A DNA stretch of 54,038 nt from a virus (lineage: Duplodnaviria > Caudoviricetes): IMG/VR virus record IMGVR_UViG_3300048590_000251, positions 1 to 54,038 of that record. One strand, given 5' to 3'. This document shows positions 3,602 to 48,100 of the stretch, piece after piece. How positions within the stretch are numbered: position 1 is the first letter of the stretch; each line of letters begins with the position of its first letter. Under the pieces are notes generated by a model, which had not been told where the DNA came from, searched no databases, and worked only from the letters and a program-made list of their open reading frames with translations. Position numbers and translations under genes: made by a program.

Positions 3602-3626
3602 TCTGTTCTCCCTCTCGAAGCCTTCG

Positions 3627-3893
3627 TCACTCCGGCAGAACGCCGGACACCACCATGTCGCCGCCCGCATCCCGGACCGGCACCAGGTATTTCGTCACCG
3701 AGATTGCGCGGGTGCGGCTGGGCAGTCTCTCGATCAGCCCCTCCGACTCCAGCACGTCGAGCCCCAGAGAAACCCTGCTCTTCGACCGGACGCCCCATGC
3801 GTCCGCGATTTCGGCAAAGGACGGCCCGACACCGCGACCGGCGCGCATCAGGCGCAGCAGCGCCGCAAAGCGCCACCAGTCCAGAGTCCTCAC
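3627..3893 (-). CDS. LexA-like winged-HTH DNA-binding domain without peptidase domain
   Basis: PSFAEIADAWGVRSKSRV...LESEGLIERLPSRTRAISV resembles the alphaproteobacterial LexA N-domain. Confidence 0.75.
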   Translation of the reverse strand: MRTLDWWRFAALLRLMRAGRGVGPSFAEIADAWGVRSKSRVSLGLDVLESEGLIERLPSRTRAISVTKYLVPVRDAGGDMVVSGVLPE

Positions 3894-4102
3894 GGCAGCC
3901 CCGCAAGGTGCAGACTGGTGGCCCCGCCGCCGATCCCCACGGCCAGGAACGCAGTTGCCGCCCAGATCAGCGCCTGTGCGCGAGCCATGGCCTCGCCCCG
4001 GCTTTCCGGGCGCATCGCGCCGGCGCGGTGCGCATGGTGCAGCGATGCCGCCAGCGCGGCCAGCCCCGCGAAAGCCGCGGAGACAGCGATAGTCGCCATC
4101 AT
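3890..4102 (-). CDS. Small protein with two hydrophobic segments
   Basis: MMATIAVSAAFAGLAALAA...LIWAATAFLAVGIG; SD ggagga; coupled to neighbours. Confidence 0.6.
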   Translation of the reverse strand: MMATIAVSAAFAGLAALAASLHHAHRAGAMRPESRGEAMARAQALIWAATAFLAVGIGGGATSLHLAGLP

Positions 4103-30741: not shown

Positions 30742-33119
30742 GTTTCTTCGATGGAGCGGTGTCCGGGTTCTTCGCCGGGCGGGATTGGCGCGAAGGCAGA
30801 GATGCCCGCAAGCGTCAGCGTGAACTTGCGGAGATCGAGGAAAACCGACGCGCCGAAGAGTTCGGGTGGCGCCGGGATGAGCAGAAATTCCGCGTCGATA
30901 CCCTCTCCGCCCAGAAACGCGCCCGCGAACAGGCCGAGAAAGACGCCGAGGAAGAGCGAAAGGCGTTTGCCGAAGCCTACGGGGACGCCAAGGCGGCATC
31001 CGAGGGCGATGCGGGCACAGAGGCCGGGCCCGGCGCCCCTGACCCCAATGTCGCGCCGGACACGCCTGCCGGCGAGAGCACGAGCCCGCAATCGGTGCGC
31101 GAGATCACCGCAGGGCGGTCTGCGCCTGCTTATGGCGACGTTGCCCCTCCGAGGCCGCAGAAGCCGCCGGCCATTGTCAGCGATGCCCCGTCGATCGGCG
31201 CCTCTCTCGCGTCCGGGCCGGACGCGCCGCAAATGCCGGCCATGCCCGATATGCCGATCCCGCGACAGGGAGGGAAGGCGCTGCACCCGCCCTATCTCGA
31301 TCCGGCGCCCAACGTGCCGCCGCCGGACGGAAAGACCGGGCGTGTGGTCTTCGCGGAGTCGAGTGGTCTTCCGCAGCCCTATATCGCCAAAGCCCGCGAA
31401 TTTGACGCCTTGCAGGCGTGGCTTGAGCGCGGAGTCAGCACCGATACCGGGCAGCCGCTCAGCGAGACCGAGCGCGCCAGCGCGATTGCACGGCTGGCCG
31501 AGTTCGACCGGACGCTGCGCGGCGCCGCCGACCAGGTGGCAGAGGCAACTGGAGGCAGAAAGAGCGTTGCCCCGTCGCAGGAGATGGCCCACAGACCGCA
31601 GCGCATCGGCGACCGGCCTTCCACCTATGCGCCGGACGCGGCTCCCGCCGCGCCACAACCGCCGCGACCCATACCATCGGACGGGCTTGGCCCCCGTGCC
31701 GCCTTCGCCGAGGGCAACGGACTCGACGCGCAGACGGTCCTGATGGCGCAGGAAGCCGACAGGATGGAGGCCATGTTGCAGGATTCCGCGATGGAACCCA
31801 ACATGCGCAAGACTGTCGAGGCACGCCTCGCCGCACATGAAGAGCGACTCAACGGAGCCGCGCTCGCCGCCGGAATTGCCCCGCCGCGCGATCCGCGCGC
31901 CACGGATGCCGCCGTTCTCGACCAGCGCGCCCCGCCGCCGCAAATGGCCGTGGTGCCTGCCGGGATGCCGTCTCCGCCGCCAGATACCGCGATGGATGCC
32001 GGGTTTGTGCGTCCCGCTCCGGAGGAGAAGGTAAGCCGGGAGGCGCGGATCACCAGGCCCGACCTGCCGATCCCGCGTCCCCGTCCAGCGACCGTGGGCG
32101 GCGTCCGGGTTCCGTTTGGAGAGAAAGGCGCGGTGGACGCGCCGCCGGTGGTGGATGGGCCGCCTGCGGGCCCCGTGAGCAGCGCGCCGCCGGCCGCCGC
32201 CCAGCCCCCGTCCGATCCGGCTGCACCGCAACCCATCGCGCAGACCCCGCCGCCGCCGCAGGCAGCGCCTGACGGCGTTCCGTTGACGGAGCAGGGAACA
32301 CCGGCAACATCGGTCGATGCGGCGCAGGCGACCGCGCCGAAGCGCGATCACCCCGCGAAGAAGGGCGTGATCGGAGAGGGGATGCCGGTCAAGGCCACGC
32401 AGAAGCAACGCGAAAAGGCGGGCAAGGACTTCCTGACCTACTACGCCGAGAAGGGCGCGCCCAGGATCATCGAACACTACCTGAAGACCGGGCAGGTCGA
32501 GAAGGCTGTCGCGTTCCGGGATTTCATCCAGGACGAGCAGGTGAAGGCGGGGATGAAGAGCTGGTCGATGGCAGCTCACGCCGCAGCGATCGGAGATGAC
32601 GAAGGGTTCGTCAAGTATCTGGCCGAAGCCTACAACAGGCGCGGCTATTTCGATGACGGGTTCTCCGTCGTGGCAGAGGACTCCGGCCTGATCCGCGACA
32701 AGAGCGGCAGCGTAACCGGCGCCCAGATCACCTACAAGAAGGACGGCACCGGCGAAATATTCGTGGAGAAGGTCGATTCTCTCGATAACCTCTACGAGCA
32801 GGGACTCTGGATGCTGTCACCGGAGAAGATATTCGAGACAGGGTGGAACGATGTCCAAGCGGGCAGGGCCGCGCGGGCTGAAGTGACCAAGAAACTGGCG
32901 GAGGCGGGTCTCCCCGCCACACGAGCGAAGGCGGTCCTCGACACAATGGAAAAACTCTCGAAGTCGAACCTCAACTTCTCGCAACTGCCAGTGGAGGAAC
33001 AGGTGTCGCAGGCCATCGCCTTCCTTGATAGTGGCGGCGCCACGCCGACACCACCTTCCGCCACCGCATCCGGCGTCGGCGCCAACCCGCAGGGCGGCAG
33101 CCTGCCCTTCTACAACTGA
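30738..33119 (+). CDS. Internal virion/ejection protein, Pro-rich centre
   Basis: GTGA coupling with SD ggagg; lies directly before the giant gene. Confidence 0.75.
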   Translation: MSFFDGAVSGFFAGRDWREGRDARKRQRELAEIEENRRAEEFGWRRDEQKFRVDTLSAQKRAREQAEKDAEEERKAFAEAYGDAKAASEGDAGTEAGPGAPDPNVAPDTPAGESTSPQSVREITAGRSAPAYGDVAPPRPQKPPAIVSDAPSIGASLASGPDAPQMPAMPDMPIPRQGGKALHPPYLDPAPNVPPPDGKTGRVVFAESSGLPQPYIAKAREFDALQAWLERGVSTDTGQPLSETERASAIARLAEFDRTLRGAADQVAEATGGRKSVAPSQEMAHRPQRIGDRPSTYAPDAAPAAPQPPRPIPSDGLGPRAAFAEGNGLDAQTVLMAQEADRMEAMLQDSAMEPNMRKTVEARLAAHEERLNGAALAAGIAPPRDPRATDAAVLDQRAPPPQMAVVPAGMPSPPPDTAMDAGFVRPAPEEKVSREARITRPDLPIPRPRPATVGGVRVPFGEKGAVDAPPVVDGPPAGPVSSAPPAAAQPPSDPAAPQPIAQTPPPPQAAPDGVPLTEQGTPATSVDAAQATAPKRDHPAKKGVIGEGMPVKATQKQREKAGKDFLTYYAEKGAPRIIEHYLKTGQVEKAVAFRDFIQDEQVKAGMKSWSMAAHAAAIGDDEGFVKYLAEAYNRRGYFDDGFSVVAEDSGLIRDKSGSVTGAQITYKKDGTGEIFVEKVDSLDNLYEQGLWMLSPEKIFETGWNDVQAGRAARAEVTKKLAEAGLPATRAKAVLDTMEKLSKSNLNFSQLPVEEQVSQAIAFLDSGGATPTPPSATASGVGANPQGGSLPFYN

Positions 33120-33156
33120 TCCGACCCGTTGCCCTCTCAGACGAAAGAGTGACCCT

Positions 33157-36100
33157 GTGGCCGACAACATCTTCGCCAAGAACCCTCTGGATGCCACCCT
33201 GGAGGGCATGACCGCCCTGAAAACGCCGCCGCAAAGCCCGCGCGCGGCGTTCGAGGCCGCGTCGCGCTCCAGCGGAGTGCCGATCAACATTCTGCTGGCG
33301 GCAGCGGAAGCCTCGGGGGCGAAGACGGGAGAGGATGCCATCCGCGTCGTAGAGGCTGTGTCCGGAGAGTGGGGCGGCAGGATCAGGGCCGGGGAACCGA
33401 TCGAGCGCGTCGTCGGCGCGACCCTTGGTGGCGACGAGGCGGCGACGGCACAGTTTCTGGACCGCGCCCGCGCTCTCGGCCGGGAGTATTACCCCGATCT
33501 GGCGCCGAAGGAGCCGGGTTTCGTCGGCAATGTCGGGCGGGTTCTCGGCGCCTCTCTGGTGCGCGGCGGCGGAATGGCCGCCGAAGGTGTTGCCAATGCG
33601 GCGGCCTCCGCCATGGACAGCCAGCGCGCCATCCTCGGTGGGATCGGCGATGCCGCCCGCAAGGCCGCCGATGCCCTCGGGGTCAAGGACTTCGGCGGCT
33701 ACGTTGCCGACGAACTCGGCGTCACCACAGCCGCGGAATGGGCAGACCGGGGCGCCAGAGAGGCCGCTGATCGGGCGCAGGATGCCGGACGCTTCGTCGG
33801 CGACGCCGCCGCAGACAAATCGGACAGCATCCGGGAAGGTCTGTCCGACCGCGCCAGGCAGGCAATGGCGGGCAGCACCCCTGACGGGGTGATCTACGAC
33901 CCGCGGACATGGAGTCTCGGCGAGAACGCATCGTTGGAGGGCTACACCTATCACGCCGTCGATGTGCTGGGATCCCTGATCCCCGTCATTCTCGCCGGGA
34001 TCGCCACGGGCGGTATCGGAGCGGCGGCAGTCGGCGCCGCCATGGGCGGCGGCGAGGGCTCGCAGACCGCGCGGCAAGTGGTCGATGAGGCTTACAAGAA
34101 CGGCACCCTCGACCAATCGCCGATGTTCAGGCGTCTGGTCGCGGAAGGCGCCAGCCCGGACGATGCCTATGACCGAGTGCGCCGCGAGGCAGCCAAGGCC
34201 GGGACGCTGTTCCAGGCCCCGGTGAGCGCCTTCGGCGGATACGCCACCGCCTCGATCGTCAAGGGAACGGTCGGAAAGGCCGTCGGCGGTGGGATCATGC
34301 GCCGCGCCATTGCCTCCGGCGTGGCCTCGGCCGCCGAGGAGGGCTTGCAGGAGGCGGCGGAAACCGTCTCCGCAAACCTTGGCATCAAGGCCACGACTGG
34401 CCTGAAAATCAACATCGCCGACGGCACGTTCGGCGATTTCGTCTTGGGCGCCATCGGCGGCGCCGGTCCGGGCGCGGTCGGTGGGGCGCTTGGGCGGGGT
34501 CATGCCGGTGATCCGTCCAGGCGGCCGCCTGTCGCGGCACCCCCCCAGGAACCACCGGAGCCGGAGCCGGATGGGGGCATTCCCGCGGCAGGCGGTCAAC
34601 AACCCGTTCCAGCGGCGCCCGACCTCGCGCCCGAGCCGTCGCCGCTCCGGGATGCCGCCCGCGCCGCACCGCCGCCGGCCGCCGGAGATATCGCGCCGGG
34701 GTCGCGCGTCATCCTGAAATCCTCCGACAGCGCGCCTCCCGGCGAGCGTGTCCCCGACATGACCGGAACCTTTGTCGGCGAAAAGGGCCGCATGGTCCTG
34801 ATTGCCGACGAGGACGGAGAGGTTGTCGAGATTCCGCGCAACGCTTTCGATCTGGGAGCAGTGTCGATGCAGGCACTTGCGCTAGATCCGATGCTGCCGG
34901 AAACAGACGCGCCGGCCGATCCGGAGGCTCCGCCGCAGCCAGATATGGCTCAAGCGCCCCAGCCTGACCTTCAGCCGCCCGCGCCGGCCGCAGAGGTGCC
35001 GCCGCCGCAAGAAATTCCGCCGGCCGTAGATGTGTCTCCCGCTCCGGACGTCCCCGAGGATGTGGTGCGCCGCCGCTTGCGCATGATCGAGGATATCGCC
35101 AAACGCGACGGATGGACCGCCGATCTGATCGCCCAGCGAGACGCAGCCCGTGAGGCAGTCGCCAGAATTGGCGCGTCCATGGGCGTGGGTCCGGAACCCA
35201 GGCCACCGAACCCAGAGACGGAGGATACAGGCGATGTGGTTGAACCTGGACGAGCTTCAGAGGGACAGGGTGATCACGGCGTGGGAAGCGACCGCGCTGC
35301 GCCAGTGGCTCGACTCCCCGACGCCGGAAGTCCTGCCGAAGGAATGCCCGCTGTCAGAGATCCTGAACCGGATCCGCCTCCATCAATGGACCCCGGACCG
35401 CGCGCACTGACTCAGGAGACTGCGGAGAAGAAGACGGTCACGCCCGATCTGGTGACGGTTCGGGATGTCTACGGCAAGAGACACCGCGTGAGAAAGCCGG
35501 ATCTGGACGGCGACCGGGCCATGCTGCCCACGTTCAACGCCAATGGCGAAAGGACGAATGGCACGCTGCTGCACCGCGACAACATCGACCCGGACGGGTC
35601 CGGGGTGCGCGCCACCTACGCATCCGCGCCTTACATCGCCAAGGAAAATGACCGGCCGTTCGCGACCGAGGCGGCGGCGAAGGCCGCTGTGCGACACGTC
35701 AATCAGGATTTGGCGGATTTCAAAATCAAGCCGGTCAATGGCGGCTTTGTCGCGGTGCGCAAGAAGGCAAAACCGGACGCGGAGACGGCGCCAGAGACCC
35801 CGGATGCCCTTTCGATCGAGGATATCCGCACCAAGGCGGCGATCCTGCGCGGCTGGACCGGCGACAAGCCGCCCGTGGTCGACGGCGTGCTGTTTTCCCA
35901 CGATGTGAAGGCGGGCGGGTATACCTTCTCCCGCAAGCACAAGGAGAAGGTCGGGGCGGCGCTCAAGGTGGGTGCGAAGCCCGCGGCAGGCGAACCCCTG
36001 ACGGGCGAGATCATCACCCCGGAAGATGACGCGGAAGCGCGGCGCAAGGCGGCCACTTCGGTCGGCATCGAGCTGACCGATGCGCCGTTGCCGGTGCGCG

Positions 36101-39100
36101 CGCCGTGGTGGACCGACGCCAGCCCCGAGGTTCGGGCGGCGATCCTCGACGCGGCAGGCCCGCAGGCCACCAGAGACGCGCGCCAGACCCACGGATGGGA
36201 AAACCTGAGCGATGCCACCCGCAGGGCGCTCCTTGACGCGCACGGCCGCCTCTATCGCGCGGGCGAGATCACCAATGTCGGCACCATCGAGGCGCCACGC
36301 TACGCGCTGGCGGGCGCGAAGCCTGACGGCAGCCCGGCCTTGCCGGACAAGGACGCCGCGCGGATCTGGAACGCCACCCCGCCAGCGCGACGCGAAGCCA
36401 TCGTTGTCGAAGCCGGATGGGTGGTGAGCTCCGGCGTGAACAAGGGCCATGCCAGCCCGGTGGGCCGCAAGATCGCGCAGCGAACATGGAAGGAGCACCC
36501 GGAGAACATCGCATCGGTGCTGAGCGCGGCGATGAACAGGCTCGGGATGCGTTCGGCTCTCGAAGACACGATTTCCGGGACCAACGCGGACACCGAATCG
36601 GCATCTCAGGAAAATCCCGCAACGACCGACCAGAGCGAACCGACGCAAACCGCCGCGTCTCCCGCTGTGCCGACCCCGGCGCAGGCCGAGGCCGGCAACT
36701 ACCGCATGAAGCACGTCAGCTTTCAGGGCCTCGACATCACCATCGAGACCGAGAAAGGCCAGGAGCGGCGCGGCAAGGACAAGGACGGCGAGGAATGGTC
36801 GGTCACGATGCCGGCCGATTATGGCTACATCAAGCGCACCGAGGGGGCCGACGGCGATCACGTCGACGCCTATCTCGGCGACATGGCCGACAGTGATTTC
36901 GTGCTGATCGTCAATCAGGTCGATGCCGACACCGGCGCCTTCGATGAACACAAGGTCATCCTCGGGGCGATGGGCCGCAATGCGGCGCTGGACATCTACC
37001 GCGGCGGGTTCTCGGATGGCCGCGCCAATGACCGGATCGGCTCTTTCACCGCGACCAACATCGCCGGGTTCAAGGCATGGCTGGCAGCGGGGCCGCACAA
37101 GGCCGCGACGCAGAATCTGGACTTCCCGTTCAAGAAGAAGGCCGCCGATACGGATCGGACTCAATCGACGCCGATCATTTCCGATGACAAGCCAGCAGCC
37201 GATCCCGACACCGCCGAACAGGCCGCGATTCGCGCCCGCATCGAGAAGGAAGAGAAGGCCAACCCGGATCCCAAGCCGGTCATCGACTTCCGCGACATGA
37301 CCCAAGGGGTCGAGGGCCTGGCGCTGATCCGCGCCCTGCGCCTCGCCGGGGATGACGCCGCAACCCGGCAGCGGACGGCGAATGAGTGGGTGCATGGGCA
37401 ATTCAAGCGCACCGGCATGGAGCATCTGGTCGTTCTCGACAGGGAGGGCAAACTGTTGGTGGCGGCCGAGGGATCGGTCAACCATGTCGGGTTCCCGAAC
37501 TGGCTGAGCAATTACGCCAAGACCAAGATGATCTCCTACAATATCCACAACCACCCCTCCAACAGGGGCCCGAGCCCGGGCGACCTGGCGGCGGCGGCCT
37601 CCGGTTTCCGACCGGTCCATATCATCGGTGCGGACAAGGCGCTGCGCGGCTACAGCCCGACCCCGACCTTCATGGAGGGAGCGCCCAAGAGCATCTTCGC
37701 CTATGATGCCATTCGGGAAATTATTGACACGATCGACGGCGCCGTCGTCGGCATCATTCAGGCCCAGATCACCAATGGCGCCGTCAAGATAGATGACGCC
37801 AACGTCCTGCACAGCCATGCTGTTGCCAGGGCGATGGCCGAGGCCGGGGCGCTGGAGATCACCGGCAATGACATGGCGGCCGAAATCGACGCCGCCGGCA
37901 TCAATCAGGGAGAGATCAATGAGCGAGTCGCAGAAATACTTGCCCCATGGCTTCGACGGACCGGACAGCCTGTCGCCAAAGTCGGAGATCAAGGCGCTGC
38001 TGAACCGGCTGAAAGCGATACCGGCACCGGACGGCGTGGTGAAGAGGCGGATACGGCAGACCGAGAAGATGCTGGGCGCGGCGACGCTCAAGGGCGGGTT
38101 CCGACCCCCGCCGCGGTAAAGCCGGCCAAGGCCGGTTCGGCTGCCGTCCAGTTGAAAAACTGGACCGGGCTGGAGGTCAACGCCTACGACGACGAGACTT
38201 CGGATGATGGCCGAAATTCCAAGGTCAAGAACGAGTGGAAGAGCGACGCCACCCGATTTGGCCGGGCCATTGCGGCGATCCTGAAAGATGCCGGGTTCAC
38301 CGCGCCGCTTCCGGGCGGCCGGGCGCAAAGGGGCAAGACACCGAAGCCGATCAACCCGGTATCGTGGAATGCCAGCGGCATCGCCGGGTCTGGTGAGGTC
38401 AGCGTTTCGCTCGACGGCCCGGATGGGTTCGGCGTCTATATCCACATGGATGCCGATGGTCGGTCCATGGGCGGGGAAAGCCCGGTCCGCATCTACTGGC
38501 GTGTTCGGAAGAACACCGACTCGCCCTACGGCGGCGAAATGAACCAGTGGGTTCAGGACAAGCAGATTGCCGCTGGCGACATCACTGACATGATCCTGAA
38601 AGCGATCGAGCGCCGGGCGGCACAGCCCGAGGCGGCAAAGCCAGAGCCGACTCCGCAGCCCATGACCGAAGACCCGAAGATCCCTCGCGGATACGAGTTG
38701 ACCTATATCAAGCGCGCGACCGGACCAGAGGCCCGAGCCAACGGCTTCACTCCGGGAGAGCCGCACAAGGCGGTCATCAGGCGCGACCAGCCCTACGGCG
38801 TCTACGATTTTGTTGGAAAGACCCGTGCGGATGCCATCGCAGGCGCTCTGAGACTGGCAATGAAGCCCGCGACCCGCCCGACGCCCCAGGTGCCGCCGAT
38901 GGCCGGAATGACCCCGATGGGGGCCAAGCCGGAGCCCGACGCGACCAAAAAGCCGTCAGATGTTGAGGCCGAACAGGCGGAGACAGATCCGGGCACTGTC
39001 CCCACTTCTTCGCAAACATCTCCCCCAACAAATGCCGATAATCCGGCGATTATCCCGATCACGGAGCCGCCGAAGAAGAGCGGCGCCCTGTCCAACCTGT

Positions 39101-42100
39101 CGCAGGCCAAGCAGGACCGGGCCGCTCTGCTGCGCGCCAGGATCGCCGACCGGCTCAAGAACCAGTTGAACACCGGCGTTGACCCGGCGCTGCTGGTCGA
39201 TGCGATCGAACTGGCCGGCATCTACATCGAATCCGGCTTCCGCAAATTCCGCGACGTGCTGAAAGCCGTCGCCGCCGACATGGGCCTGACCGAGGTCGAT
39301 GCCGAGCCGTGGGTGCGCGCCGGCTACAACGAGGCCCGCGACGGCCTCGAACTGGCGGATGAAGATGTCTCCGACATGGACGACAGCAAGGCCGTGCTGG
39401 CGCATGTCCGCGACATCAGGAAAGCCGCGAAAGAAGGTTTGGAAAAGCCGGTAGACGCACCTATATCTGACGCACCAGCCACCGAGGGTGAACCCGATGA
39501 GCCGCAGACAAGAACTGGTCGAGATGGCCGAGGAAATGAAGGCCGAGAGTCAGGCGCTGATCGACAAGGAAATCTCGGAACCGGGGAGCCGGATGGAAAC
39601 CGAGGCGATCGAGACCTGGAAGAACAACAACCCGACACTCTACCGGGTGATGAAGGAACGCGGCGCACTGGAGGCGACGGCACACGTCGTGGTCCATCGG
39701 ATACTGGAGCAGGCCAAGCGGATGACCAAAGCGGGGATGCCGCCGTCGGAAGCCCGGACGGAAGCCTACCGCGACCAGATGATGCTGGACTAGAAGCGCA
39801 AAAGCCCGACGAACCGGCATCGCCGGCGCGCTCGAACTACCGCATTGATGATCCCGAGGCTCTGGTCGGCGGAACGCCGAAGCGCCGCTTCGCGCGCAAC
39901 CGTGAAGCCATCGAAGCCTATCAGAGCATCAGGGACGAAGCCCGCGAGCCTACCCCGCAGGAACTGGATGCCATGGCATCCTATATCGGCTGGGGATCGT
40001 TCGGGCAGCAACTCTTTCAGGGAACCTGGACCCGGCCGCGGTTCGTGGACGGCTGGAAATCCGAGAACGAATGGCTGCGTCAGCACTTGGGCAAGGACGA
40101 GTGGGAAGACGCCCAGCGCAGCATCATCAATGCGCATTATACCGACCCGCCGACGGTCAGGGCAATGTGGGGCATGGTCGAGCGACTCGGCTTCAAGGGT
40201 GGCAGGGTGCTGGAGCCCTCCATGGGAATCGGCAACTTCTTCGGCATGATGCCCGCGCAACTGGCCGCCAATTCGCAGCTCACCGGAATCGAACTGGACT
40301 CGCTGACCGGCGGCATGGCGAAACTGCTCTATCCGCGCGCTGCCGTGTCCGTGATGGGCTATCAGGACAGCCGGACGCCTGACAACTTCTACGATCTCGT
40401 GATCGGCAACTGGCCCTTCGCCAATATCGAGGTGCCGGATCGGCGCTACATGAAGCTGAAGCCGAGCCTGCACGACTACTTCTTCCTCAAGGCGCTCGAC
40501 CAGGTGCGGCCCGGCGGCCTCGTGGTCGGCATCACCTCCGCCTTCACCATGGACAAGAAGGCCACCAATATCCGGGCGGCACTCGCCCGCCGCGCGGATC
40601 TTGTCGCCACCTTCCGCCTGCCAAGCGGTGCGTTCGAGAAATATGCCGGAACCAGCGTCGTCACCGACATCATCATCCTGCAAAAGCGGCAAGAGCCGAT
40701 CCTCGACATTTCCGGGGTTACGTGGGTTCGGACAGCAGAGGTGGACACCCCGGCAGGAACGCCGGTGACGGTCAACCAGACCTATGCCGACAACCCGGAT
40801 AAGGTTCTCGGCACCCTCAATTTCGGCACCGGATCGACCTATGGCGCCCCGAGCATGATCGTGGATCGACCGGCCGATCTCCTGGAGCGGCTGGAGGCGC
40901 TGCCGGCGACGCTGCCGGAAGGGGTCTACACCGCCACCCAGCGGGGCAAGGAGCCGCGGTTCATCTCAAACCACACGACCGCGCAGCAAAACAGCGTGAC
41001 CGAGGTCAAGGGTGTTCTCTACCAGGTCCAAGGCGAGCGGCTGGTCCGGTTCGAGGACGTGGCGAAATACAAGGTGAAGGACGCCAAGAAGACCGCAGCG
41101 CGCGAGGCCGAGATCATCGCCTTCATCGACATGCGCGAGAAGTTGGGCGCGGTCATCGACGCCGACCGGGCCGGCACCGAGGATGCCGACACCAAGCGCA
41201 AGGCGCTACGCAAAGCCTTCGATGCCTTCCGCAAGGCGCACGGGAATATCGCCGACTCGCTGGCGCTGTCGCTCCTGCTTCGGGCCAAAGACCCCGGCGC
41301 CCCGATGGTTCAGGCGCTGGAGGCCAAAGACGGCACGCCTGCGGCAATCCTGTCCCGGCCCACCATTCGGGCGCCCTCGACGCTGGAAAACCCCAGCATC
41401 CGTGACGCCTTCGTGATTGCGCGCAACGAGTCCGTGGCCTTCGACCTCGAACGGGTCGCAGCGCTTGCCAAGGCGAAGCCCGAAGAGGTGATCGCGGATC
41501 TGGCCGGATCCGGGGCAATTTATCGCACTCCCGGTGGCGCCTATGAGGTCGCCGATGCCTACCTGTCGGGGAACGTTCGGCAGAAGTTGCGGGAGGCAAA
41601 GGCCGCTGCCGAGGCTGGTGAGGATATGGCGGCTTCGATCTCGGCGCTGGAAAAAGTCCTGCCGCCGTTCCGGCCCTATTACGACATCGAGGCCAAACTT
41701 GGCGCGATGTGGATCCCCGATCAGGTCTATATGGACTTCCTGACCGAGAAACTCGGAATGTCGCCGATCCAGAGGCAGAACAGCGAAGTGCGCTGGTCAG
41801 CGGGCGCATGGCGGCCGCGCCTCGACCCGTCGCTCAACCACAAGCCGGAAGCGTCCTCGGTCGGTCACTCAGATGTCCGCATCGGCAGCTTCATCAGCCA
41901 CGCGATGAACAACCAGACCATCATCGTGAAATACCGGGACAACGAAGGGGAACACAAGGACGAGAAGGCGAGCGAGGAAGCCAACGCCAAGGCGGCCAAG
42001 CTGCGCGAGGACTTCTCCGAATGGGTCTGGTCCGATCCCGAGCGGCGCCACGACCTTGAACTGGCCTATAACGAGCAGATGAACGCCATCGCCACCCCGC

Positions 42101-45100
42101 AATTCGACGGGTCGTTCCTCGATTTTCAGGGCATGGCCCTGCAACGCGGCGATCAGGAGTTCAACCTGCGCCGGCACCAGGCCAATGCGATCTGGCGCGG
42201 CATCCTCAACGGGCGTGGCATCTATGCCCATGAGGTCGGCACCGGCAAGACCATCACCATGGCCGGCATCGCCGTCGAGAGCCGCCGCTACGGGAAGGCC
42301 AGAAAGCCGCTGGTCGTGGCGCATAACGCCAACTCCAAGGCTGTCGCCAACGAAATGCAGGAGACCTATCCGGGTGGGAAGTTCCTCTACATCGACAACC
42401 TGGCCCCCGGCGAAATCGAGGCCGAGATGCGCCGCATCGCCACCGACGATTGGGATGCGGTCATCATCCCGCACTCGCTGCTGGACCGGATGGCGTTGAG
42501 CCAGAAAACCCTCGAGGCTCTGGCCGCAAAGGAAATCGAGGCGCTGGAAGCCGAAGCTCTTGCCGCCGCCGCAGAGGATGGAGCCGACCTCACCCTTGAG
42601 GACATGGACGATCCGGACGCCATGAAGAAGGTTCGATCCCCGACCGCAAAGCAACTGGTCAAGGCGCGCGAGAACATCATCGCCTCGATCCAGAAGGCCG
42701 CGCTGCGCGCATCGAAAGACGGTGCCGTGCCATTCGAGGATCTTGGCATCGACATGCTGATCGTGGACGAGAGCCACGAGTTCAAGAAGCCCTCGATCGC
42801 CACGCGGATGACCGTGAAGGGCTTGAACAAGGCCACGTCGGCGCGCTCGATCCAGTTGAAATTCCTGTCGGATTATATCCGCGGCCAGAACAACGGACGC
42901 GGCGTCCACGTCTTCACTGGCACTCCGATCACCAACACCCTGACCGAAATCTACCATCAGATGCGCTATGTGATGGAAGACGTGATGGAGCAGAGCAACA
43001 TCTCGGCCTGGGACGGGTTCTTCAACACCTTCGCCGCCTCCGTGCCCGACATCGAGCTGACCTCGGCCGGCGATTACCAGAGTGTCGAGCGTCTTTCGTC
43101 CTTCGTGAACGTGCCCGAACTGCGCCGGATGGCCGGGCAATACATGGACATCGTGTTCGCCGACGACATGCCGGAAATGCAGCCACGGCGCGCGTCGAGC
43201 GGCAAGACGCTTCTCGACAGCGACCTCACCAAGGCTGACCGGGACGAATTGCGCAACGGGCGCCAGGAGAACCCCGAAGGCCGCCCCTACAAGGAGGTGA
43301 TCCACGACATCGCCGACATGGAGCCGGATCAGCGCCGCATCCTCGATCAATCCATTCGCTTCGCCAGGCAGTTTCGCGTCCTGTCGGGCAGGGATAAGAT
43401 TGACGTCATGCGCCGCGGTGGGCCTGATGCCCCGATCGTGTTCGATGCCGTGCCGTCCAGGGCCGGGCTCGATATCCGACTCCACGAGATCGACGCCGAG
43501 GACTCGCCGACCAGCAAGGCCAACCGCGCGGTGCGCAACGTCACCCAGATCTACAATGAGGACAAGCACACCACTCAGGTCATCTTCATGGACGAGGGCT
43601 ATTCGGACTCGGTAACGAGGGTGAAGAAGAAAGACGGTGAAGTCGTCAGCCGCGAGAAGGTCGAGAAGTTCAACCTTGCCAAGGATATCGTGGCAAAACT
43701 GGTGGCGGCCGGGATCCCCGAGGCTGAGATCGCCATTGTCAACAAGGATGTGTCGAAGGAACAGCGCGCCAAGATTTCCGAGCAGATGAACAACCTGCAA
43801 ACCCGCGTCGTGATCGGCCTGACCTCCACTCTTGGCGTCGGCGTGAACATGCAGAAATACCTGCGGGCCATGCACCACCTCGACGCGCCCTGGATGCCTG
43901 GCGATCTGGAGCAGCGCAACGGACGCGGCCAGCGTCAGGGCAACGAGTGGAACACGGTTCTGGAGTATCGCTATCTGACGGAAGGGCTGGACGGCCGCCG
44001 CTGGCAGGTTCTCACCATCAAGGACCGCTTCATCAAGGCATTCCTGAAAGCCGAGGATGGCGTGAGGGTGATCGAGGGCGACGCCACTGATGACGCCACC
44101 AGTATGGGCGCCGACGATCTGGCCGCAACGCTGTCCGAGGCGGCCGGCGATCCGCGCATCTTTCAGGTCAAGAAGTTGGAAAAGGACATCGAGCGCCTGC
44201 AACGGCGCGAACGGCTGCACGTCGATGGCGTCGCCGATGCCAGGCGCAAGGTCAAGAAGTTGCGCGATTCCATCCCGCGAACCGAGGATAGTGTCGCCGA
44301 CCTGGAGCGAGCGACAGAAGAAGTCGCGATGGCGCGCGAAAAGGGCTTTACCGCGACCATCGACGGAAAGACATTCGACAGTCGCGACGATGCGGCAAAA
44401 GCCATGGATGCGCTTGTCCAGCCGATCGTGGCGCGCGGGGGGCACAGCCTCTCGACAGAGTGGCGGGATATCCCGGCATCGGTGCAGGGCTTCCAGATCC
44501 AGATCAAGAGATCGAACCTGATGCGAGACGGTCAGGTCCTGGTCGATTTCCGCGTCAAATACGATGGCGTTGGCGATTATGACACCATGGGGGCGCCGAG
44601 CGTCGCATCCGCAGAGGCGGTGCTCCGCAAGATCGCGGATCGGCTGGAGAGGGCCCGCACCCAACTGGCAGAGGACCGCGCCAGTGCAGACCGCATCGAG
44701 AAAGCCGCCGCCGCTCCGTTCCAGCAAGCCGAAGCCCTGAAAAAGAAGAAGGTTCAGGTTGAAGCCCTGCTTCAGGATCTCAAGGATAATCCCGTTGCGC
44801 CGCCGTCGTGGTTGCGACAGGGCGCTCCGATCGACAGCGTGATCCACGTTGACAAAAAACCCCGCGCCGTGACCGGACATCGCTGGACCAAGGATGGGTG
44901 GTTCGTCAGCACGGAAGCGGGAGACGTTCCGTATCTCGACGCCCGAAGCGAGACGGGGGTTCCGCTCTATCAGGAACGCCCCTTCGAGCCGCCGCAGATC
45001 GAGGAAGGATCGAAGCTCCGGACCGGCGACGAGCGGGATGAAGCGGAGATGTCGGAACCGAGGCCCCCACCCGTCACATCCCTGACGGGTGATGAGCTTG

Positions 45101-48100
45101 GGATTGTGGCGGATATTCGGGAACTCGGCCGCGCCGCGGAAGGCTGGTATACGGACAACCTCATCGGGAAATCCGTGGTCAATGCCGAAACCGGCTGGGA
45201 TATCCGCTTCTCCCGTCGAGGCGCGAAGAAAATCGGCGGTCGAAAGGGTGAGTATCTCTATCGGATCGTGCCTGCCCTCGCCGAGATCGTGAGGGGCGGG
45301 CATCTGATCGGAACCGAGATAGACCGGGGCGCAGACGGCCAAACGACAAGGTGGCATCGGTTCTCGGCGGCTGTCGAACTCGCCGGGGTCATCAAGGACG
45401 TGATCATCACCGTCCGTGAGGCCCCGAACGGCAAGTTCCACTACGATCTATCCAGGGACACCAGCGACGGCGCCCGCTTCTTCCATGCCAGCCCTCCGGT
45501 ATCAGAAGCCGGTGCGAGGCAGGATGACGCGCGCGCCGCCTCACTGAATATAGATGAGGTATCTTCCTTCGGCAACGGGGCAGAGGAAATTCCTGATGCC
45601 GACATTGCCGCCATCGCGGCCGAGGTGGACAGCCTGATGCGCCGCATCGGACTCGCCGGAACGGTGCGGACCGACGTCGTGAGGGCGATCATCGACGCGG
45701 CCGGGACGGAGCGGGCCGGCGCCAGTGGACTCTACAGCCGCGGCGCTGGTCGCATCCAGATCCGGGCCGACGCGGTTGCGGGGCCGATTCCGACGTTGCG
45801 CCACGAGATCATCCATGCGCTGCGCGACGCCGCGCTCTGGGGGCGGGACTACGGCCTCTTCACCAGGGAAGAATGGCGGGCGCTGGTGCGCTCGGCGCGG
45901 GCCGACAAGGCGGCAGTCAAGGACGTTGACGCCCGCTACCCGAACCTGCCCGAGATCGGGCGCACCGAAGAACTGGTTGCCGAACTCTACCGCAAATGGG
46001 CGACAGGGGAAGTCTCGCCGGGCCTGGCGTCAACCGCCCTTGGCCGTATCCGGTCCTTCTTCATGGCGCTGGCAAATGCGCTGCGCGGCAGGGGCTTCAC
46101 TTCGACAGCCGCGATCTTTCGCGGCATCGAGCGCGGCGATATCGCCGCCAGAGCCATGCCGCGCGACGCCAGCGGGCAGTTCATCAGCCTGGCGGAAGCC
46201 GCGATGGTGGACATGTCCGCCGAACCGGAAGCCACCACCGAGACCGCGTTCGACCGCAAGGAACGCAAGTTCCTCTCGAACCTGTTGACCGATGCGATGG
46301 GCGGGCGCGGGCGCTTCAATCTGCTTGCGCTGGTTCCGGGCCGGCCACTGTTCACCGAACTCGGGCGGAAGATGCCGAGCGCGCTGACATTCCTGCGCAT
46401 CAAGGAGGAAATGGACGCGACACGGCAGGAGTGGCATGAAGCGTCCGACCGTCTGGCGACCGATTGGCGCGGGCACCTGTCCCGCGACGGTGCGGGAAAC
46501 CGCGCGATGATGGATCTCATGCACGATGCCACGATCGCCGGGCTGGACCCGTCCAAGCCTTACAAGTCCGCGGTCCGGGACGGTGATGAGCGCCTTGCGC
46601 ACGGCGACGACGAGCGGGCGGAGGCGGCGCGCGGGCGACTCATGGCAGAACCGAGGCGCCGGGCGAAATACGACCGTCTTCAAGCGAGGTTCCGGGATCT
46701 GTCTCCGGACTTCCAGCGCCTGTTCGGCGAAGTTCGCGACATGCACAAGAAGATGGGCGCCGACTTCGAACGCACCATCCTCGACAATGTGCGCAAGGCC
46801 ATGGAAATCGCCAGCGACCGGGCGCGAGAGGCTTATGACGACGAGATGCGGCGCATCCGCGACGAGGGCCTGCAAGGCGCAGAGCGGACCGAGGCCGAGA
46901 AGGAGGCGCGGAAGAAACGCGACGGCGCCCTGCGTCGCCAGCACGTCGCCAAGGCGGCGCGACTCGCATCCCTGCGCAGCATCTTCGAGACGAACAAGGT
47001 GGAGGAGCCGTATTTCCCCCTGATGCGCTTCGGAAAATACGTCGTGACCGTGCGCGATGAAGAGGGGAAGGTGATCTCCTTCTCCAAGTTCGAGAGCGAA
47101 GCCAAGCAGCAGGCTTTCGCGGCAGAGATGCGCGCGATCCGCGGGCAGACCGTCCAGATCGGAACGATGGACGACGATTTCACCGCCCGGAAGCATGTGG
47201 ACCCGAACTTCGTGGCCGATGTCGAGGAAATGATCGGAGATACCGTCGCCGATCCGGAGATCATGGACGCGATCTGGCAACGCTGGCTCGATACCCTGCC
47301 CGATATGTCGGTGCGCAAGAGCCGCATCCACCGGAAGGGGACGCCAGGCTATTCGGATGACGCCTTCCGCGCCTTCGGCTACCAGATGTTCCACGGCGCG
47401 CACCAGCTCGCGCGCCTGAAATACACCATGGACCTCGACAAGGCGGTGGAGGACGCGAAGCGCGAGGCGGCCGCATCCGACGACCCCAACCGGACGATGC
47501 TAGTCGTGTCGGAAATGGAGCGCCGCAAGGCGTTCACGATGAACCCGACCGGAAGCGCGACAGCGCAGATGTTCACCTCCGCCGCCTTCATCTACTATCT
47601 CGGGTTCACGCCCGCCGCGGCGATGGTGAACCTGACGCAGACTACAGTGGTCGGGATCCCGATCCTGTCGTCGGCTTTCGAGAAGGGCGGCGTGGCCCGC
47701 GCCAGCCGGGAACTGATGCGGGCCGCCGGCGACTTCGGTCGCGGGAAGGCGCACGCAGAACGCTCGTCGCGCCTGACCGAGGACGAGCGCGCTGCGCTGG
47801 CCGAAGCCTATCGGCGCGGCACGATCGACAAGAGCCAGGCGCACGATCTGGCCGGCGTCGGCGAAACCGGCATCGAGCCCGACTCCACGATGCTGCGCCG
47901 CATCCTGAGCGACCGGGCGGCCCATCAGTGGGTCGGGGTCCGCAAGAAGGCGATGGCCGGGATCTCCTTCATGTTCCATCACACCGAAAGGGCGAACCGA
48001 GAGATCACCTTCCTTGCCGCCTACCGGATGGCAAAGGACAACGGGTTCACCGGCGAGGCCGCGATCGACAAGGCTGGCGACGTGACGTGGAAGACGCATT

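Follow-up and report, generated by a model that had tools for sequence, protein, structure and literature searches.

A TnpV-like small gene probably encoded within the linker of a giant DarB-like methyltransferase–helicase gene

Introduction

The giant "DarB-like" polyvalent gene of IMGVR_UViG_3300048590_000251, an IMG/VR record of a virus of the Caudoviricetes, very probably forms a dual-coding locus, in which a linker of the giant protein and a nested TnpV-like small gene are written on the same DNA. The window, by which we mean the whole stretch analysed, comprises 54,038 bases with a GC content of 64.6%. The giant frame would be read straight through positions 39439–39828 as a low-complexity linker, which joins the N-terminal modules to the methyltransferase (MTase)–helicase module, and one base to the right the same DNA would constitute a complete small gene (39497–39793), the product of which is predicted to be a folded five-helix protein of the TnpV-like superfamily. 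The small protein is proposed to be made from the giant-gene mRNA by internal initiation at its own Shine–Dalgarno (SD) sequence and ATG. From the spread of related loci, we infer that the overlap is old and proper to this MTase–helicase family, and no local accident. The principal features are as follows.

33025..49119, + strand: outer gene, a polyvalent "DarB-like" open reading frame (ORF) of 5364 codons, recognized by its Pfam domains and MTase likeness
39439..39828, + strand: giant-frame linker of 130 residues, joining the N-terminal modules to the MTase module
39497..39793, + strand: nested gene for the TnpV-like five-helix protein, 98 codons plus TAG, in the +1 frame of the outer gene
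39829..42159, + strand: MTase module of the outer protein, beginning SNYRIDDPEALVGG..., followed by the helicase from about 42160

Coding Signal of the Nested Frame

The inner ORF lies wholly within the outer ORF and in a different frame, as an embedded gene does. Its stop codon TAG occupies positions 39791–39793, and the peptide quoted in a preliminary description of this DNA is encoded by the 98 codons, 81 of which end in G or C, a number exactly matching the hand count given there. Along the giant gene, the G+C content at third codon positions (GC3) of the giant frame is about 0.78 (0.775 over the 2138 codons upstream), and it drops to 0.34–0.48 between about 39440 and 39790. Over the same positions, the GC3 of the +1 frame rises to 0.78–0.85, after which the preference reverts to the giant frame; computed over 39452–39791, the values are 0.82 for the nested frame and 0.40 for the giant frame. 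This coding signal is well beyond chance and marks the 98-codon ORF as apparently genuine. The separate nested ORF proposed in the preliminary description is thus supported, both as a protein-coding sequence and as one with its own ribosome-binding site.

The giant-frame reading of the same DNA is of a different character. The 130-residue linker is composed largely of Gly (23), Asp (19), and Pro (15), with Glu, Ala, and Arg at 12 each, and it contains no aromatic residue, Met, Cys, or His. Read in the +1 frame, the stretch gives the sequence of an ordinary helical protein.

Recurrence of the Arrangement in Phages, Plasmids, and Chromosomal Elements

A survey of +1 ORFs upstream of DarB-type MTase domains, which the preliminary description had proposed, bore out the arrangement in 22 of 24 viral contigs, in at least 11 of 16 annotated phage regions, and in 53 of 80 bacterial-genome loci. 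The viral contigs were recruited through the downstream MTase part of the window (39820–40899), with an identity of 38–65%. The MTase frame is open for at least 1140 nucleotides (nt) upstream in all 24, and the homologous +1 ORF, of about 90–140 codons, lies just 5′ of the MTase module, with a high GC3 in the nested frame and a low GC3 in the giant frame. The two exceptions are L025, which has a different +1 ORF, and L022, which is without any.

Among the annotated regions, the arrangement is clear in nine phages, namely Pseudomonas phages vB_PaeM_USP_25 and Itty13, Burkholderia phage Bcep22 (gp75), Ralstonia phage Gervaise, Erwinia phage Pavtok, Vibrio phage VvAW1, Agrobacterium phage Atu_ph08, Ochrobactrum phage POI1126, and Klebsiella phage SopranoGao. 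Pseudoalteromonas phage Y7 and a Listeria contig also carry the nested ORF; the +1 ORFs of a Bacteroides phage and a Helicobacter prophage are of uncertain kinship, and a Streptococcus phage and a Bordetella phage have no nested ORF. The nested ORF is missing from the annotation of every one of these phage records. The Itty13 record (L030, NC_070969.1) carries three hypothetical coding sequences (CDS) on the other strand from that of the MTase match and of the open giant frame; they are probably a shadow-ORF mis-annotation of the high-GC giant gene.

In Listeria plasmids (L042 and L043; CP044431.1 and NC_022047.1), the same ORF occurs at +1 inside an ArdC-like/MTase/SNF2 gene. One of the two records annotates a "TnpV protein" together with small hypothetical proteins and the other a 1503-nt ArdC-like CDS; either the long gene or TnpV is annotated, never both. 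The long gene of the Listeria plasmids ends early, near an IS21-type element.

The bacterial-genome loci, which come from many phyla, were collected with an MTase alignment, and hidden Markov models (HMMs) from three alignments of nested ORFs (A3–A5) were run on the three forward frames over the 2.5 kb upstream of the MTase. All 53 matches fell in the +1 frame, with none in frame 0 and none in +2; at all 53 loci the MTase frame was open across the match, and the nested frame had the higher GC3. Among the 27 loci with no match, five have less than 400 nt of upstream sequence, and three (L098, L110, and L114) have another +1 ORF family with the same GC3 switch. This second family, which is undetected by the HMMs, sits in the same place (L025, 5639–5993; L098, 3639–3987; L110, 3627–3993; L114, 3696–3990), carries the motifs W.LGWP or W.LN.P ... 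HEI, and may be a further branch of the superfamily.

Several verrucomicrobial-type elements have minimal forms of the locus, in which the MTase–helicase ORF starts at its own ATG about 100–250 nt 5′ of the nested gene. The existence of such forms suggests that the overlap belongs to the MTase–helicase gene itself, and that it is no by-product of phage gene fusions. In these minimal forms (L084, L123, L076, and L089, at about 3620–4000, and L109, at 2030–2360), the first residues of the ORF read QLSLF, QLDLF, or QLDFF, which we take to resemble a sliding-clamp-binding motif.

Called proteins provide a second route to the family. A word-indexed search with the small protein returned three stand-alone proteins of 89–101 amino acids (aa), two of which are about 64–65% identical to it with the same start and stop, and an exhaustive HMMER search returned 37 cluster representatives at E ≤ 1e-3. 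Of the latter, 34 are 78–185 aa long and share the pattern W-K-x3-P ... G-x-L ... AGMPxTDAREQAER..LMLEPE. The remaining three are long proteins with 4–13 short matched stretches each and were set aside, and no in-frame fusion of a nested-protein homologue to a long enzyme was found among the 37 representatives. A tblastn search with the 98-aa window protein gave no match in the phage or plasmid collections; locus scans with this protein or with a three-sequence alignment gave none in viral, metagenome, or genome contigs, and a locus scan with the 320 aa of the giant protein upstream also gave none.

Selection on Both Frames

Judged from comparisons within and between loci, selection is maintaining both frames. 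At 34 of 34 loci the giant frame contains no stop codon across the nested gene, whereas synonymous shuffles of the nested codons place 0.0–4.0 stops per locus in the giant frame, or about 51 when we sum them over the loci. At 12 of these loci, the giant frame stays open in at most 10% of the shuffles. The third frame, by comparison, contains 3–15 stops per locus.

In 87 of 89 locus pairs with a nested identity of 45–99.9%, conservation is higher in the nested frame than in the giant frame. Pooled over the 89 pairs, the differences per site are 0.37, 0.32, and 0.44 at nested codon positions 1, 2, and 3, respectively, and close pairs vary mainly at position 3, as in L008 and L024, where the corresponding values are 0.13, 0.02, and 0.26. 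Variants were also taken from metagenome contigs of three runs, which are about 90–95% identical to the window. Among the 40 differences listed, out of 158, 8 of the 11 in the nested ORF fall on nested position 3, and 21 of the 27 outside it fall on giant position 3.

These patterns bear on the alternative that the nested frame is a shadow ORF, that is, an open frame of high-GC DNA whose conservation reflects constraint on the giant frame and from which no small protein is made. The GC content of the window (64.6%) and its many long alternative-frame ORFs give this idea some footing; two such ORFs, of 1127 and 1190 codons, run antisense to the giant gene (35383–38766 and 41869–45441, both − strand), and we take them to be high-GC shadow frames. 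For the nested ORF, however, this explanation is extremely unlikely, as the preference at third positions is that of the nested frame and not of the giant frame, the nested frame is better conserved in nearly all close pairs, with variants on nested third positions, and the start, stop, and SD sequence are conserved. The nested ORF also occurs in low-GC elements with Pfam TnpV matches, and its product is modelled with high confidence (see below), while the giant-frame reading is a low-complexity linker.

Start Site and Mode of Expression

The sequence around the start of the nested gene contains three elements that bear on its expression.

39438..39466, + strand: promoter-like TTTGGA-N17-CTATAT, weak and not conserved
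39449..39451, + strand: nested-frame TAG that bounds the nested frame on its 5′ side, with 14 sense codons between it and the nested ATG
39484..39489, + strand: Shine–Dalgarno-like GAGGGT, followed after 7 nt by the ATG at 39497

The GAGGGT-N7-ATG arrangement reported in the preliminary description is present, and its counterpart is conserved: 29 of 32 loci have an SD core 4–18 nt 5′ of the nested start codon, whereas such a core occurs at 13.4% of background positions and before 186 of 1673 other ATGs. In 11 of the 32 loci, a nested-frame stop lies within 10 codons 5′ of the ATG, which leaves little space for a frameshift out of the giant frame. A related contig from run X2 lacks the base at 39484 and has a T added after 39491, a compensating pair in the SD–ATG spacer that restores both frames within 7 nt. 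One of the metagenome runs is labelled RNA-Seq; it is probably DNA and covers short conserved parts only.

The preliminary description had also proposed that the small gene encodes a regulator or partner of the DarB module, transcribed from a promoter of its own and potentially expressed in the lysogen; the candidate is a sigma-70 site at 39438–39466. The two hexamers are indeed present, at 39438–39443 and 39461–39466, but by our reading they match TTGACA and TATAAT at only 3/6 and 2/6 positions, i.e., 5/12 overall. A consensus promoter scan of 38800–40200 found no promoter-like site on the + strand, and by the same criteria only 2 of 32 loci have such a site in the 200 nt before the nested start codon. 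A promoter of its own is therefore not supported, and independent transcription from this site is improbable. With the SD sequence and ATG conserved, stops close to the ATG, and promoter-like sites rare, the most likely mode of translation for the small gene is internal initiation from its own SD and ATG on the giant-gene mRNA.

Recoding would offer another route: a +1 frameshift shortly before 39497 would append the TnpV-like segment to the C-terminal end of the N-terminal part of the giant protein, and the segment would be made in no other form, or the giant protein itself would need frameshifting. The nested frame of the window is open for 14 codons 5′ of the ATG, and in Sinorhizobium phage PBC5, the one record in which such a fusion seems to exist, the frame of orf33, the N-terminal part, continues through the TnpV-like segment up to the stop of the latter. 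In addition, the best structural match of the small protein in BFVD, Q8W6J4_2 (E 0.28, probability 0.99, TMq 0.62), is a segment of a long protein, which we provisionally take to be PBC5 orf33 from its 1093-residue half-length. Compared with its relative Atu_ph08, however, PBC5 shows a gap of one base some 48 nt 5′ of the nested start codon, which has the look of an indel or of a sequencing error confined to this one record. The stops 1–10 codons before the ATG, the retention of the SD sequence and ATG at nearly all loci, the minimal forms in which the outer ORF begins only shortly 5′ of the nested gene, and a giant frame that is open in all loci likewise make recoding unlikely. In the PBC5 record (L036, AF448724.1, about 1126–1482) the giant gene is split into orf33 and orf23, by either a sequencing error or a real frameshift.

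The Small Protein and Its Kinship with TnpV

AlphaFold2, run with 53 sequences, predicts five helices for the nested protein, with a predicted local distance difference test score (pLDDT) of 95.7 and a predicted template modelling score (pTM) of 0.86. Structure searches against PDB with Foldseek and against BFVD returned nothing at E ≤ 0.001, PDB sequence profiles gave only SOX-17 (E 0.14), and PHROGs and NCBIfam contained no meaningful family for the nested protein. Rows for TAL effectors contained no significant stretch and were regarded as repeat noise.

A resemblance to TnpV-like proteins had been tentatively suggested in the preliminary description. Positional homologues of the nested protein pass the Pfam TnpV gathering cut-off of 27 bits (L019, 32.5; L021, 33.4; L039, 29.0), and others score below it in the same register (L029, 21.9; L034, 17.7; L030, 15.7; L027, 14.2). 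Profile comparison provides a probable link between the subfamilies: with hhalign, alignment A4 (51 sequences, the subfamily of the window) matches alignment A5 (6 sequences of Erwinia, Klebsiella, and Vibrio type, 3 of them sub-threshold TnpV matches) over 67 columns, with a probability of 95.3% and E 2.2e-8. The window protein further shares the traits of TnpV-type proteins in its length of 98 aa, its all-helical model, and its location on a virus contig. An Atlas cluster with TnpV on 11% of its members (rank 12, score 0.79) serves as a lead only. A homology search with the TnpV-type ORF of L021 returned one near-identical protein, too few for a TnpV profile, and a six-frame search of the whole record for TnpV returned none at E ≤ 10.

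We call the nested protein TnpV-like by probable remote homology, and no member of PF14198, because the window protein itself misses that family while positional homologues match it and profiles appear to link the subfamilies. The suggested resemblance stands in this sense, through the homologues and the profile alignment, and does not extend to a match of the window protein. Like the TnpV of Tn4451-type elements, proteins of this kind are about 100–120 aa long, all helical, and found on mobile elements, and they share W-K-x3-P-x2-Y ... G-x-L. The window protein differs from PF14198 TnpV in the motif GMPxxxAR(T/E)EA..., which reads GMPxTDAREQAER..LMLEPE across its subfamily.

To our knowledge, TnpV has remained unexplained for some thirty years. 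In the available part of one description, its role is only postulated, as an excision function by likeness to Xis, and the classical tnpV is a free-standing gene (PMC3158075), whereas the gene of the window is nested. As far as the accessible part of another source goes, the TnpV described there (PMC9815147) may be the nested gene of an interrupted snf2-type giant gene, which we regard as a lead only.

Evidence against the Dual-Coding Reading

Several observations weigh against reading the locus as a conserved pair of a giant gene and a TnpV-like gene. In the window alone, the giant frame is open in 51% of the synonymous shuffles, which is not significant, and the argument from openness therefore rests on the set of loci; some of these are close kin (L019/L020, L008/L024, and L007/L010), and the loci therefore cannot be counted as independent of one another. 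When all 435 locus pairs are taken, distant ones included, the mean identity is 0.325 for the nested and 0.344 for the giant frame, and the nested frame is the higher in 175; we attribute this to the shared low-complexity composition of the linkers, which align at about 34% by composition. The HMMs applied to the 80 bacterial-genome loci were built from nested ORFs of this same analysis, with the three frames searched equally. As for TnpV, the Pfam profile (PF14198) does not match the window protein at E ≤ 1, and A4 aligns to A3, the set of 11 sequences that includes the three true TnpV matches, with a probability of only 57% (E 1e-4). TnpV is also found alone on small plasmids, and the consulted part of the literature describes it as carried on transposons (PMC3158075). 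Finally, the nested gene is lacking in L022, four Lachnospiraceae-type loci, the annotated phages L037 and L041, and P1 darB, and such relatives indicate that the MTase–helicase can exist alone.

The openness of the giant frame also bears on whether the locus could instead hold three separate genes, with the giant frame untranslated over 39440–39830 and its openness incidental. The result of the shuffles in the window is compatible with this arrangement, and PGAP (the Prokaryotic Genome Annotation Pipeline) sometimes calls, on Listeria plasmids, TnpV and flanking pieces and not the long ORF. Against it stand the complete lack of stops over the 34 loci, set beside the number expected from the shuffles, and the open frame at the 53 bacterial-genome loci, low-GC ones included. 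The giant frame of the window also has no ATG, GTG, or TTG between the nested stop and the MTase motif with which a separate downstream gene could start, and the giant protein of the Bcep22-like phage JC1 is reported, in the part of the source available, as single and virion-associated by mass spectrometry (PMC9144972). Separate genes are thus very unlikely, and the dual-coding locus is the reading followed below.

The Outer Gene and Comparable Systems

In the 5364-codon ORF, Pfam recognizes InPase (3.5e-46), LPD39 (1.1e-59), LPD3 (4e-26), ResIII/SNF2, and Helicase_C. The outer ORF is a polyvalent protein, as it combines several unrelated conflict-type domains, LPD domains among them, in one polypeptide. 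The MTase part matched 88 phage records by tblastn, many of which are annotated as DarB-like, and by sequence similarity the MTase and helicase module of the outer gene is homologous to DarB-like proteins.

The giant gene contains two further +1 ORFs. One, at 35234–35410 (+), has 58 codons and GGAGG 8 nt 5′ of its ATG, and over 35126–35408 the GC3 is 0.53 in the giant frame and 0.84 in the +1 frame. The other, at 37919–38119 (+), has 66 codons, is preceded by GGGAGAG, and coincides with a GC3 switch at about 37885–38090. Searched by tblastn against the related loci, neither has relatives.

DarB of phage P1 is an MTase–helicase that is packed in the virion, as is also stated in a note of the P1 record. 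The outer gene of the window resembles it in its homologous MTase and helicase, and cultured relatives are annotated as DarB-like; P1 darB, however, has 2255 codons with the MTase domain almost at the start, and it has neither a linker nor a nested TnpV-like ORF. It is absent among the listed tblastn matches to the MTase part of the window. Antirestriction proteins of the P1 DarB type protect injected DNA from restriction; among homologues of the outer protein, virion association is reported for that of JC1 only (PMC9144972).

The Rz1 gene inside Rz of phage lambda is an embedded, out-of-frame phage gene. The present locus is similar in that a complete small gene, provided with a ribosome-binding site, is contained entirely in a larger gene of the same strand, to which it is +1 in frame, and in that both products presumably come from one mRNA. 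It differs in three respects: the outer reading is a disordered spacer of a giant multidomain protein and no folded partner domain, the pair is conserved over phages, plasmids, and chromosomal elements of many phyla, and no interaction between the two products is known. For Bcep22-like phages, an Rz1 of the embedded class is given in the part of the JC1 description available (PMC9144972).

With the polyvalent proteins described by Iyer et al. (2017, PMC5512222), as far as the accessible text goes, the outer protein shares the combination of InPase, MTase, SNF2-type helicase, LPD3, and LPD39. The terms TnpV, overlap, and frameshift do not occur in the main text of that paper, and a second reading frame in a linker lies outside the published description as far as it is searchable. 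In the literature searched, to which subscription journals and supplementary files did not belong, no paper describes a nested TnpV-like/DarB-like arrangement.

Possible Function and Significance

The small protein probably works together with the MTase–helicase, as a chaperone, adaptor, or regulator, because recombination cannot separate the two genes. A complex prediction of the nested protein with the 780-aa MTase module gave a score of 0.00 and, made without controls, says nothing either way. A more specific and decidedly tentative suggestion, which we regard as possible though doubtful, is that the TnpV-like protein is an obligate partner of DarB-like MTase–helicases, in the form of a small chaperone or anti-activator. 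Such a partner would hold the giant enzyme in a soluble or inactive state within the cell that makes it, up to the packing of the enzyme into the capsid or its transfer through a conjugation channel, and writing its gene into the linker of the enzyme would fix the co-inheritance of the two and couple the synthesis of the small protein to the translation of the giant mRNA.

In prokaryotes and their viruses, long gene overlaps that are conserved between phyla are uncommon, and gene-calling programs are designed to discard them. Dozens of sequenced phages contain the nested pair (Bcep22-like, Ralstonia, Erwinia, Klebsiella, Vibrio, and Pseudomonas), as do Listeria plasmids and chromosomal elements of bacteria ranging from Proteobacteria to Clostridia and Verrucomicrobia. 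No record examined annotates both members of the pair: the giant gene is listed or, in rare cases, TnpV, and the small gene escapes routine annotation. The "linkers" of polyvalent proteins can thus hide genes, and the locus would be a natural case in which one frame is merely kept free of stops while the other preserves a fold.

The arrangement physically ties the uncharacterised TnpV family to an antirestriction MTase–helicase module and provides a testable functional lead. If the TnpV-like protein is indeed an obligate partner of these enzymes, TnpV would gain a function, and few gene pairs that overlap on one strand in the mobile elements of prokaryotes would be conserved as deeply as this one.

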